From NCBI RefSeq assembly GCF_035084215.1, contig NC_090348.1, forward strand, positions 44,826,001-44,890,000: 64,000 nucleotides of DNA. The letters are read 5' to 3'. The position numbers and the translations under genes are program-made. Origin of the DNA: Heptranchias perlo. Taxonomy: Eukaryota. Under the pieces are notes generated by a model. The model ran no database searches. It saw only the letters and a list, made by a program, of their open reading frames with translations, and was not told the origin of the DNA. Each line of letters starts with the position of its first letter. Positions within the stretch are counted from its first letter, which is position 1. Of this stretch, positions 1,028 to 12,270 are shown piece by piece.

Positions 1028-1198
1028 CTCCTGCTTGTGCCAGTCGAAGCACTGAACTCGGAAATACTCCACGGCAGCTCGGTAATTGTCCCGCTCCATG
1101 AGGCACTGTTTCGCGGTGAGCACACGCTCTGCCTGTTCCTCAGAGTCCGTGCTCAGTCGGACAATCTGCTGTACGGTCTGCCGAATCAGCTCTCTCCT
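1028..1198 (-). CDS. LGMN: Legumain-like exon encoding the LSAM (prodomain) core
   Basis: 57 codons RRELIRQTVQQIVRLSTDSEEQAERVLTAKQCLMERDNYRAAVEYFRVQCFDWHKQE, colinear with recalled legumain ARHLIEKSVRKIV...HFRTHCFNWHSPT. Acceptor ttgcag| and donor |gtacgt, phase 0-0. The gene continues beyond position 1. Confidence 0.85.
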
Positions 1199-1294
1199 CT
1201 GCAACGTAACGTAACGGATCCATTAATTATACCCCGACCACCTGGAAAGGGATCGCCAATGAGCAAAAATCTTTTAAAGTCTTTTCTAAAAAAA

Positions 1295-1690
1295 CGTAGG
1301 GGTGTCCTGATAGGTGTCTTTAAGATAATGAAAGGATTTAATAGGGTTGATATAGAGAAAACATTTCCACTTGGGGGAAGTCTAAAAGTAGAGGTTATAA
1401 ATATAAAATAGTGGCTAATAAATCCAATAGAGAACTCAGGAAAAACCCTCTTTATCCAGAGAGTGGTGAGAATGTGGAATTCGCTCCCACAAGGAGTAGT
1501 TGAGGCGAATAGCAAAGGTACGTTTAAGGGGAAACTAGAGAAGTACGTGAGGGAGAAAGGAATAGAAGGATATGCTGATAGGGTGAGATGAAGTAGGGAG
1601 GGAGGAGGCTCGTGTGGAGCATAAACACCAGCACAGACCAGTTGGGCCGAATGGCCTGTTTCTGTGCTGTAGTTTCGATGTAACTCGATG
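1295..1690 (+). mobile_element. CR1 3'-end fragment
   Basis: LIGVFKIMKGFNRVD remnant and 3' UTR GGGCCGAATGGCCTGTTTCTGTGCTGTA; homologous to ~48070-48440. Confidence 0.8.
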
Positions 1691-1957
1691 AAAGCCACCG
1701 TCTTACTCCCCTCCCGGCAACCATGGAAAAATCCCAGGGGAGAGTGCGCCGTGTGACAGCAGCGTGATTTGACACTCTCTGCAGCCCCTTGATTCTGCGC
1801 GCAGTGGCTCCCTGCGCTGTAGGGAGGGTCAGTCCATCACTGGTCAGTGAGCATTGAGTCACTGATTTTGGGGGAGGGTGGGGGGGTGGCGGAGAGAGGA
1901 AGCACAGGGGAGAGGGAACAACCCCGGGTGGAGTGGTCCTGCCCCATGTTCAGTTAC

Positions 1958-2086
1958 CTCAAGGAGCTGCTCCAACTCTTTCTGAAGCTTCGCAGTCTCC
2001 TCTGGGTCCTTAGCAGCATTGATCCGATGTTGAAGGATGGAGACAGGTACATCGCACTGGGGCACAGAATCCATTCCGGTCATCAT
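1958..2086 (-). CDS. LGMN: Legumain-like exon (activation peptide and start of LSAM); exon 1958-2108, coding from ATG 2086
   Basis: MMTGMDSVPQCDVPVSILQHRINAAKDPEETAKLQKELEQLLE resembles legumain DLTPSPDVPLTIMKRKL...EIQRHLD. Donor GAG|gtaact is phase 0; acceptor ttcctgcag at 2109-2110; in-frame TAG at 2105-2107. Confidence 0.75.
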
Positions 2087-3329
2087 CTCGCTGGATCTCC
2101 ACCACTACCTGCAGGAACAACCACCACAAGAACGTCCTGAGCTTCTACACGATGATACAAAGCCCACCCTCCCACCAGCCCTAAGTGGGAGGCACAGTGA
2201 GCCTGGCCAACAATACACTGCCATAGTACAAGGTGGGCTTACTGCCAGGATACTCAACACAGAGGGCCCCCGATTGGAACTGGGTCACAGCACCGACTGG
2301 TGAGGGGTGAATTCTGATCCTTTCTTATGAGTTAAGCTCAGAAACACCACTAGTGACCAGTGGTGAATTTGGTGCCCATGCATCTTCAGGGGCCATTGGA
2401 TCGCGATCAGGAGCAGGATCCTTTGCTGATTTCCGCACCCCCCCACTCCCCCGCTCCGGTACACCGAGACCAATTGTACCCTTTACCACTCTCCCACCAC
2501 AGACTGGCAAGATACACACACCGTTAATCAGCCGCTCGACGATGTACAGAATCCGCTACTTTTCCTTTTGTGCAATTCTTTCATTTCACGGGCGTGAAAT
2601 CAGAGTCATAGAAAGATATAAAATAATTGCATATCCTCCAATGCGGCAATTTTTGATATTCTCAAAGCGGAAATGATCATTTAAACGTAATGTACAGGGA
2701 CTGGCTGTGCTGTAGGTTAATAAACTGCCCTTTCACCTCTGGGTCCCAAGTTACATTGAGGCCAGATCAATAATGAACAAACTTGCATTTATGTAGCACC
2801 TTATTACATCTTCCAGGACGCACCAAAGTCAATGACCTATCTCCAAGTGTAGTCACTGGACAGAACGCATCAGCAATTTGCACACAGCAAGATCCCACAA
2901 ACAGCAAATGAGATGAATACCTGGATAATCTGTTTTTAGTGATGTTGGTTGAAGGATAAATGCTGGCCAGGACACCGGGGAGAACTCCTCTTTTCATCAA
3001 ATAATTCAACGGGACCTTTTATGTCCACCTGAATAGGCAGACGGGGCCTTGGTTTAATATCTCATCCAAAAGATTGCACCACTGGCAATGCTGCACTCCT
3101 TCCGTACTGCACTGCAATTGTCAGCCTAGATTAGGCACTCAATTCCCTGGAGTCCCTGAACCCATAAGAGAAAAAAGTGCTACCACCATGCCATGCTGAC
3201 AATGGGACAGAGCTCCTCCCCTCTCTGCTACCTGCAGGGGTCCTACATGAAGTGAATTTGCAGTTTCAATCAGCAGTTAGTGGGCACTGGGCCACAGTAA
3301 GGAAACGGCCATCATCAACAACTGGTCCT

Positions 3330-11090: not shown

Positions 11091-11329
11091 TATAACGGGT
11101 CAGTTGCTGTCTTTTCTATGTTTCTACCTCTCTATCTCTGTTTTTTTTTGTTTGTTGTTTTTTTTGGTGATTTGTATATTCTGTGAGACCTGGCAGGTAA
11201 CACCTGTCTGTCTGCACACTGATTGCCTTGGCAACGGGCAGTTGAAAAAACTGTCTGTACTCACCAAGCATTGTTCTGTGATTTATAAATGCGACTTCAT
11301 TTCGAGGATTTCATTTCCACATCGTTCAC

Positions 11330-11360
11330 CTGAGGAAGGAGGTAGCCTCCGAAAGCTTGT
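11330..11360 (+). ncRNA. Minimal hammerhead-ribozyme-like motif of Penelope (also at 8655-8685 -, 11661-11690 -, 12425-12455 +, 28822-28852 -, 29620-29650 +)
   Basis: CTGANGA core, short GGAG/CTCC stem, GAAA, then palindromic AAGCTT. Penelope elements are known to carry minimal hammerheads. Confidence 0.55.
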
Positions 11361-11568
11361 GAATTTAAAATAAAATTGCTGGACTATAACTTGGTGTTCT
11401 AAAATTGTTTACAATTGTCAACCCCAGTCCATCACCGGCATCTCCACATCATAATTTTGTACACCTCAATTAAATCACACCTCATTTATATCATAAAAAG
11501 CAAGGGACCAAGTACTGAGCCCTGTAGAAACCCAACTCCTGCTCACTCCCCATGCCCTTTAATACCCA

Positions 11569-11750
11569 TGATGTGGAGATGCCGGTGATGGACTGGGGTG
11601 GACAAATGTAAGGAATCTTACACCACCAGGTTATAGTCCAACAGTTTTATTTAAAAATCACAAGCTTTCGGAGATTATCCCCTTCGTCAGGTGAGTAGTG
11701 ATTTTAAAATAAAATTGTTGGACTATAACCTGGTGTTGTAAGATTCCTTA
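11569..11750 (-). mobile_element. Miniature palindromic Penelope 3'-end insertion
   Basis: Penelope terminal sequence followed by its own inverted copy; TSD CTTTAATACCCA at 11557-11568 and 11751-11762. Confidence 0.8.
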
Positions 11751-11962
11751 CTTTAATACCCACCCAGTCCAATCCCACTCCCCACATCCTTTAGTATTCT
11801 TCTATTTAAAGCAATTCCCTTCTCTGCTTGTGTACAATTCTATATTCCACCCAACTCCTCCCTCCCTCCCTCCATCCATCCACTCTGTGTAAAAACATTT
11901 TTTAACCTTTTATCCCTTTACAAATGGTCTACCTTCAACTTTTCATAATTTTACAAACTCAC

Positions 11963-12270
11963 CCAAACAGAAGAGCAGATGCGAACCGTGTTTAAGCTCT
12001 CTGAGCGCTCAGATCGCAGATCCCGCCGACAGACGCTCCGCTCCGCTCTGTGCGGCCGCTCCCGGCGGGGTGCGCACCCCCGGACATCAGGAGCCTCTGA
12101 GTGACAGCTGGGCGCTCCACTCCCTCCAGGGGAGAGACCGCCTTCTGGTGACGTCATAACTGGGTCACCTGACCGCGCTGCGAATTGTAACAAACAAGTT
12201 GCAGACAGACGGCGCCTCCCCGTCCCCCAGACACTTCCTGGTCTGGGTCTGGGTCTAGGGCTCACCTCCC
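11963..12270 (-). promoter_or_regulatory. CpG-rich promoter/first exon, probably of the legumain-like gene
   Basis: CpG-dense stretch; donors TGG|gtgagt (11963) and GAG|gtgagc (~12266); full CRE TGACGTCA 12149-12156; E-box/CLEAR-like GTCACCTGAC 12164-12173; ETS ACTTCCTG 12233-12240. Confidence 0.6.

Follow-up and report, generated by a model that had tools for sequence, protein, structure and literature searches.

The stretch of DNA analysed here (the window, 64,000 nucleotides; G000:C27:44826001-44890000) covers positions 44,826,001 to 44,890,000 of contig NC_090348.1 (C27 below) of the shark Heptranchias perlo, and carries on its minus strand most of a gene that encodes the prodomain end of legumain as a protein of its own. 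This lid gene, as we call it, is a real, old gene. Judged from sequence, its 137-residue product is of the free-prodomain type and is not a legumain protease: it contains the C-terminal half of the activation peptide, that is the strand and helix that block the active site, followed by the LSAM domain. Our tentative reading is that the lid may stay in the cytosol and dock in trans on the catalytic domain of legumain, which it would block or stabilise.

Gene structure and transcript evidence

The lid gene consists of five exons, one non-coding and four coding, with all parts on the minus strand. Exon 1 (11963..12263) is non-coding and rich in GC and CpG. Its donor, GG/GTGAGT at 11963, lies in a stretch with a GC content of 0.63 and an observed/expected CpG ratio of 0.76 (11961-12300), in agreement with the CpG promoter and first-exon donor read there in a first-pass annotation of the DNA alone; contigs from runs X3 and X4 cover the exon and run on into exon 2. 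The 5' end varies, with contig starts at 12263 (X3) and 12027 (X4), both contigs reaching 11961. Intron 1 (2109..11962, 9.85 kb) is 72% repeat by self-BLAST. Exon 2 (1958..2108) holds a 5' untranslated region of 22 nt, the start codons, the activation-peptide strand and helix and the first LSAM helix (residues 1-43), while exon 3 (1028..1198) encodes the LSAM core (residues 44-100), in which R45 (human R342) is kept and N81 stands for the first disulfide cysteine. The same two exons, and the change from SCY to DNY at that cysteine, had been recognised in the first-pass annotation; both exons are bounded by AG/GT, and exon 3 matches solved prolegumains (4d3y, E 5.8e-8). Exon 4 (C27 44824919-44824852) and exon 5 (C27 44823850 to the stop at 44823805) lie downstream, beyond the window, and were placed by tblastn of the 137-aa protein. 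A database entry identical over the exon also has 137 aa.

Transcript evidence comes from Logan contigs of runs that were guessed, not recorded, as RNA; the contigs do skip GT-AG introns. The junction 11963->2108, which had been singled out for checking, is present in contigs of two of four runs (X3 and X4, one sample of one study), and the exon 1 region has no contigs from X1 or X2. The junction 1198/1958 is bridged in three of four runs, namely X1 and X3 (same organism) and X5 (another organism, 24 differing letters), and X14 contigs cover part of exon 3 and nothing more. As a matter of arithmetic only, the X4 contig of 1986 nt is close to the sum of 65+151+171+68 nt and a final exon of roughly 1.5 kb. 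Since exon 1 joins exon 2 at 2108, the in-frame TAG (2107-2105), seven codons ahead of ATG 2086 and correctly noticed before, sits in the mRNA. Translation is therefore forced to start at the ATG-ATG of exon 2 (2086-2081; ATG 2086/2083), which gives a 137-aa product without a signal peptide. For the main form, neither use of 2104 as acceptor nor coding exons hidden further upstream could be upheld, as contigs cross 2109-2104 and exon 1 joins at 2108; minor forms are possible.

Two upstream ATGs (12157 and 12087) are contained in the longer form of exon 1, and neither reaches the main frame. A frame of 97 codons that begins with the ATG at 12157 (minus strand) overlaps with the main start in a different reading frame and could lower translation; the short X4 form contains neither ATG. 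Inside the longer form lies also the palindrome TGACGTCA (12149..12156), which we take to resemble a cyclic AMP response element and which could be chance: it is the sole match in the window, yet at least one match occurred in 36 of 100 shuffles. Depths of 436 versus 92 in X3 raised the suspicion that there may be a second, commoner first exon. X3 contigs also lie over unique intron 1 sequence beside exon 2 (2080-2801 and 3036-3357, depth about 27-34) and may stem from a retained intron, pre-mRNA or DNA. From their translated open frames, we take the repeats of intron 1 to be remnants of reverse transcriptases of long interspersed elements (LINEs), a Penelope-like inverted pair at about 9.1-11.1 kb and short interspersed elements. 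The inverted, near-identical pieces of the presumed Penelope-like pair occupy 9087-11087, the plus-strand piece having an open frame of 455 codons; a LINE-type reverse-transcriptase frame of 582 codons is open at 3660-5405 (plus strand), with more copies at about 31.4-32.4 kb.

A profile built from 29 legumains detected nine catalytic and three prodomain exons in a control locus of 80 kb on contig C10. Around the lid gene the same profile found no catalytic exon in 184 kb and only the three prodomain exons, and tblastn agrees, so that the lack of catalytic motifs first reported for 1028-12270 holds well beyond that interval. The C10 gene encodes legumain in intact form, its N-terminus resembling a leader and its motifs WYNYRHQ, DHG and EACESGS being present, and is the separate LGMN locus whose confirmation the first-pass annotation had called for. 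Genome-wide searches with PF01650 and with two teleost proteins returned the C10 gene only; they worked exon-wise and with limited sensitivity (two of nine C10 catalytic exons in one search). A catalytic-only partner, as expected for a split gene, was not found in the genome by searches that are weak, PF20985 being silent genome-wide even on the lid gene. In their last four exons the lid gene and the C10 legumain share intron positions and phases (0, 0, 2), from which it follows that the lid gene came about by genomic duplication and not as a retrocopy.

Distribution and origin in fishes

Proteins with the same architecture are known from 15 sharks and rays and from 16 ray-finned fish records (31 members). 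The underlying database searches (11/31, 26/5948 and 37/2240 candidates, plus cluster look-ups) were limited by word and length. Frames of 133-141 aa are open in 14 other sharks, rays and skates at 68-82% identity. The ray-finned members, of similar length and at 29-49% identity, come from sturgeon, Albula, Megalops, Chanos, characiforms, suckers, catfishes, Centroberyx and Genypterus. Names of chimaeras, jawless fish or sarcopterygians did not appear (sarcopterygians 0/37 matches), a weak negative given these limits. The whole open reading frame (ORF) is contained in Logan contigs of skate and sturgeon type that are 1.1-1.4 kb long. Longer N-termini in the database models P0030, P0034, P0018, P0048, P0211, P0212 and P0215 are mutually different and, where the other members start, retain a Met internally; these models are treated here as presumably over-extended. 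Amblyraja possesses two lid-only genes on separate contigs (P0033 and P0034) and the sucker Xyrauchen also has two, which represent lineage duplications.

In the first-pass annotation a partial duplicate or pseudogene was kept as the alternative. That the locus is of this kind, or a misassembly, is hardly credible: although just four of legumain's coding exons are left, the transcript contigs are spliced, the frames are open in the other sharks and rays and in ray-finned fishes, and a shark-specific duplication is rejected by an approximately unbiased (AU) test (p-AU 0.00012). Pseudogene, misassembly and hidden catalytic exons were all discarded on the basis of splicing, genome searches and cross-species conservation.

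The main tree was calculated with a mixture model from 58 rows over the lid region, i.e. the 31 lid-only proteins, the H. perlo legumain and 26 others; the chimeric P0004, models that are truncated, isoforms, near-duplicates and the majority of 150 representatives did not enter it. The lid-only proteins form a group (91/84) whose order follows the species tree. This group is joined (95/88) by another clade of full-length legumains from teleosts, and canonical vertebrate legumain stands separately (99/99). A smaller tree (28 rows, LG+G4) unites the lid-only proteins and the teleost clade at 98/96, with lid-only monophyly in 36% of bootstrap trees, and two other arrangements were not rejected by AU tests (p 0.19). 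The trees indicate that the lid gene had branched off from legumain by the time sharks and bony fishes diverged, about 420-450 million years ago. For an ohnolog origin no paralogon evidence was obtained from a Pfam scan of 140 of 780 flank frames, which gave one peptidase C1-like and two retroelement matches. The exon-sized C1-like match (L009:9229-9402, plus strand), which we take to be of the bleomycin-hydrolase type, is found next to remnants of retroelements, some 90 kb above the lid gene.

Leaderless full-length teleost legumains are the likely sister group of the lid. Proteins of this kind from four teleosts (Electrophorus XP_026877345, Chanos XP_030630733, Albula glossodonta KAG9330020 and also Acnodon) have no signal peptide and open directly at the first catalytic strand. 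The three that were aligned are without the same two LSAM cysteines as the lid and keep DHG, and two of them show the catalytic Cys motif, the third model being gapped. They share with the lid the missing signal peptide and the missing cysteines but, unlike the lid, retain the catalytic domain. Since the sister clade is already leaderless and without these cysteines, both losses likely preceded that of the catalytic domain. The teleost proteins P0066, P0067, P0060 and P0119, with no signal peptide, the catalytic His kept and the two LSAM cysteines gone, are candidate cytosolic asparaginyl endopeptidases. Chanos and Acnodon possess both a leaderless full-length gene and a lid-only gene, on different contigs. 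In the H. perlo genome, exon-wise searches of limited sensitivity did not reveal a leaderless full-length legumain.

The lid protein and its possible partners

Human numbering equals the residue number of the 137-aa protein (P0002) plus 297, as derived from the alignment and from landmarks in papers. The N-terminus, MMTGMDSVPQ, contains no hydrophobic leader as judged by eye and begins at about human residue 298, shortly before the strand that in prolegumain occupies the S1 pocket with Ser307. Homology to prolegumain 4d3y covers about 127 residues (E 1.9e-33), the Pfam PF20985 match reaches E 1.2e-9 and 38.7 bits against a cut-off of 25.2, and identity to the lid of the legumain from the same genome is 38%. 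The earlier description of a leaderless LSAM-only protein is correct as to the missing leader and protease; since the activation-peptide strand and helix are retained, the product is not LSAM alone. D309 and R342 are kept, the latter as Arg in 27 of the 31 lid-only members, position 307 is Gln, Asn or Ser within the family, and the autocleavage residue Asn323 is replaced in all 31.

None of the 31 members has a Cys at the positions of human 378 and 429, which are N81 and S132 here. We assume the pairings to be 378-412 and 390-429, and breakage of both bonds rests on this assumption. In legumain itself there are two disulfide bonds in the LSAM domain (PMC12320161, PMC7489914; these and the following papers are cited from excerpts of their text). 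Because a signal peptide is missing and unpaired cysteines suit a reducing compartment, the lid is probably cytosolic. It is unlikely that the lid leaves the cell non-classically and works extracellularly, either as the inactive human C-terminal fragment is reported to do on osteoclast precursors or by stabilising secreted legumain. Secreted prolegumain does exist and the human fragment is reportedly bioactive (PMC9788469), but the lack of a signal peptide and the loss of two disulfide cysteines throughout the family fit a reducing compartment. An extra Cys at residue 11 (2056-2054, minus strand), beside P1 (QCD), is present in all 15 elasmobranchs, in addition to two unpaired LSAM cysteines; conceivably it is redox-sensitive or contacts a protease thiol covalently. 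Net charge ranges from -2 to -8 in elasmobranch members and from -11 to +10 in outgroup legumains, which makes it a weak argument.

A free AlphaFold2 model of the lid, predicted from a 74-row alignment including legumain fragments, reached a predicted local distance difference test (pLDDT) score of 87.9, with low confidence for residues 1-6; an earlier fold from 10 sequences had been poor (pLDDT 56). The model agrees with the lid of prolegumain 4nok (TMq 0.86, root-mean-square deviation (rmsd) 1.3 A). All Foldseek matches with E up to 0.011 among those listed are legumain proenzymes, and VIA gave a plant proenzyme at Z 12.2 (rmsd 3.4, 129 aligned), the rest of the top 50 rows having at most 5.1; the matches of an ESM Atlas fold search were all under 0.9 and none was named. 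The LSAM has been called death domain (DD)-like (PMC4357240). The death-fold families DD, CARD, PYD and DED were found neither by Pfam nor among the Foldseek matches listed or the top 50 VIA rows.

If the lid docks on legumain in trans, its N-terminal strand is predicted to bring Gln10 to the place in the S1 pocket that Ser307 takes in human prolegumain, and Lys in place of Asn323 would protect it from being cut there. In sharks the target would be legumain that has escaped from lysosomes; in ray-finned fishes it might also be the full-length paralogue without a leader. In all 29 non-neoteleost members checked a Met is located 3-6 residues before a V-x-x-x-D motif, so that the protein begins directly before the strand that binds the active site; Val and Asp of this motif are both invariant (29/29). 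At P1, 14 of 15 elasmobranchs have Gln and 13 of 14 ray-finned members have Asn or Ser, and the S1 pocket is occupied by Ser307 in the human (PMC4357240) and by Gln346 in a plant proenzyme (PMC7489914). Mammalian legumain reaches cytosol and nucleus, and at neutral pH its stability is raised by the prodomain (PMC9788469, PMC8491156, PMC9579014). In another protease family free propeptide genes act as inhibitors (PMC4089206).

We modelled the complex without alignments, using as a stand-in partner the catalytic domain of a teleost legumain (P0055, residues 24-288). The model scored 0.85 versus 0.31 for the best control, with a contact agreement between runs of at least 76% and a partner pLDDT of at least 57, and in it Gln10 lies at the catalytic cysteine, adjoining Cys189 and Asp231. 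In calibration, 51 of 78 solved complexes and 2 of 108 mismatches came up to the mark (eukaryotes: 39/65 and 2/126). Since prolegumain has already been solved, the pass may be memory and demonstrates likeness only.

Several observations weigh against docking on legumain. We compared shark with ray-finned sequences at the 23 enzyme-facing positions of the complex model. In legumain, identity at this interface is 0.76 versus 0.42 elsewhere (2/5000 permutations), whereas in the lid-only proteins it is 0.35 versus 0.43 (4194/5000 permutations), with a legumain-minus-lid difference in enrichment of 0.42 (2/10000 permutations). Within elasmobranchs the interface shows 0.74 versus 0.80 elsewhere. A binder of a conserved enzyme surface ought to keep its own surface, and it is for this reason that the drift counts. 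The objection is softened by the leaderless full-length paralogues: their lid is attached covalently, and they too lack enrichment (0.39 versus 0.36, three rows). Furthermore, R403 is found in 1 and K316 in none of the 31 members, R317 is changed to Asn in 13 of 15 elasmobranchs, and the mean interface charge is +0.4 in elasmobranchs versus +1.3 in legumain and +1.9 in ray-finned members. The spiny-rayed-type models P0050, P0222 and P0095 keep the LSAM core without the activation-peptide hairpin, due either to a real second truncation or to a gene-model error. In addition, three exon-wise searches of limited sensitivity found no cytosolic legumain gene in the H. perlo genome.

Only a little less probable than docking on legumain, in our view, is that the freed lid no longer serves legumain and, as a helical adaptor or regulator in the cytosol, binds some other protein via a new surface. 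Besides the enzyme-facing surface being without extra conservation, 15 of the 16 positions conserved in the lid family but not in legumain fall outside the predicted interface, and R123 and K125 are shared by all 37 rows; candidate residues of a new surface are Gln19, Pro28, Glu46, Glu64, Glu117, Arg123 and Lys125. Neoteleost-type members retain the LSAM core only, and shark-to-sturgeon identity is 48% for the lid-only proteins, on par with 53% for legumain's own lid. A new partner would also be in line with the DD-like character of the LSAM (PMC4357240) and with the effect of the inactive C-terminal fragment of human legumain on osteoclast formation by itself (PMC9788469). However, several of the family-specific positions are hydrophobic (I22, L38, L41, Y88, F111, I128) and may merely replace the lost disulfides, and the active-site strand and start position are kept in 29 of 29 members.

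Genomic neighbourhood, related systems and meaning

The neighbouring NLR gene (17108..28026, minus strand) ends at about 17.1 kb, about 5 kb above the promoter of the lid gene. Its exon chain, read from DNA alone, comprises signal peptide, IgV, transmembrane (TM), NACHT-HD2 and LRR exons: the IgV exon is located at 26686-26282 (Pfam V-set, E 2.7e-11), the TM exon, called from sequence, at about 25.1-25.2 kb, NACHT-HD2 at 22170-20308 (Pfam NACHT, E 2.1e-22), and the last exon, likewise called from sequence, ends at TAA 17110. The product would be membrane-anchored with a B7-like ectodomain. The gene had been described as effector-less, which is right in so far as Pfam finds no CARD or PYD in the ORFs scanned; signal peptide, IgV and TM exons are carried in their place.

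That the lid is the missing signalling adaptor of this Ig-TM-NLR is very unlikely. Both genes lie on the same strand in close vicinity, and the NLR has no CARD or PYD of its own, but the lid gene possesses a separate promoter and first exon, and the NLR contains no death-fold domain for homotypic binding. The functional link suggested in the first-pass annotation thus found no backing beyond adjacency. We also consider it rather unlikely that jawed fishes harbour an overlooked cytosolic legumain branch, made up of the teleost leaderless protease and the ancient free lid, in which the conserved surface of the lid has moved off the enzyme side and serves as a DD-like adaptor for a new partner, possibly the adjacent NLR.

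Upstream of the NLR, minus-strand frames at 49992-50231 and 55503-55841 contain tyrosine motifs (ICYAEL, VVYSAV) and a hydrophobic segment; we take them to be probably the tail of an immune receptor with immunoreceptor tyrosine-based inhibitory motifs. Downstream of the lid gene, two coding-looking frames (L019:6204-6548 and L005:487-735, both minus strand), one starting MSLQVVTAKMAEVELKE and one lysine-rich, have no Pfam match at E 0.0005 and are probably the next gene.

With the prodomain of prolegumain (C13; PF20985; 4FGU, 4NOK, 4D3Z) the lid shares the homologous sequence, the predicted fold and the last four exons. Unlike it, the lid is a separate gene without signal peptide or catalytic domain and has lost two of four disulfide cysteines as well as Asn323, Lys316 and Arg403. 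The I29 propeptide-like inhibitors CTLA-2alpha, crammer and BCPI, directed against cathepsins of the papain family, follow the same logic of a prodomain homologue as its own gene, but their fold and protease clan are unrelated, and inhibition, shown for them, would be a prediction for the lid (PMC4089206, PMC3286859). Homology to I29 was not detected, PF20985 being the only Pfam family to pass its cut-off for the lid, whose homologue is the clan CD protease legumain. A like logic applies to the CARD-only and pyrin-only proteins (COP, ICEBERG, POP1), small helical domains that duplication has freed from a clan-CD protease or sensor gene and that act as cytosolic decoys, but the lid has no sequence match and no listed structural match to CARD, PYD or DD.

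A prodomain-only or leaderless legumain of fish or other vertebrates was not found in the openly accessible literature consulted, and the lid gene is apparently undescribed. The elasmobranch transcriptome paper, as far as its excerpt goes, deals with canonical LGMN, and databases title the lid-only proteins 'legumain-like', a label under which they stay hidden. The present analysis adds the first-exon junction in H. perlo, the leaderless full-length sister clade and an interface-conservation test that cuts against the lid as a brake on legumain. Extra-lysosomal legumain activity has been called puzzling (PMC8491156), and isolated LSAM is hard to produce owing to its disulfides (PMC12320161). 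The life of the LSAM apart from the enzyme and the control of legumain outside the lysosome are open in the field. A natural lid gene without two of the four disulfide cysteines, kept in sharks, rays, sturgeon and teleosts, and a leaderless paralogue are both convenient to produce and to test in assays. Should the lid inhibit legumain in trans, clan CD family C13 would have its first free-prodomain inhibitor, within the literature covered, and legumain inhibitors stable in the cytosol could be modelled on it. Should it bind another protein, this would give direct evidence that the death-domain-like fold of the LSAM is used in signalling.

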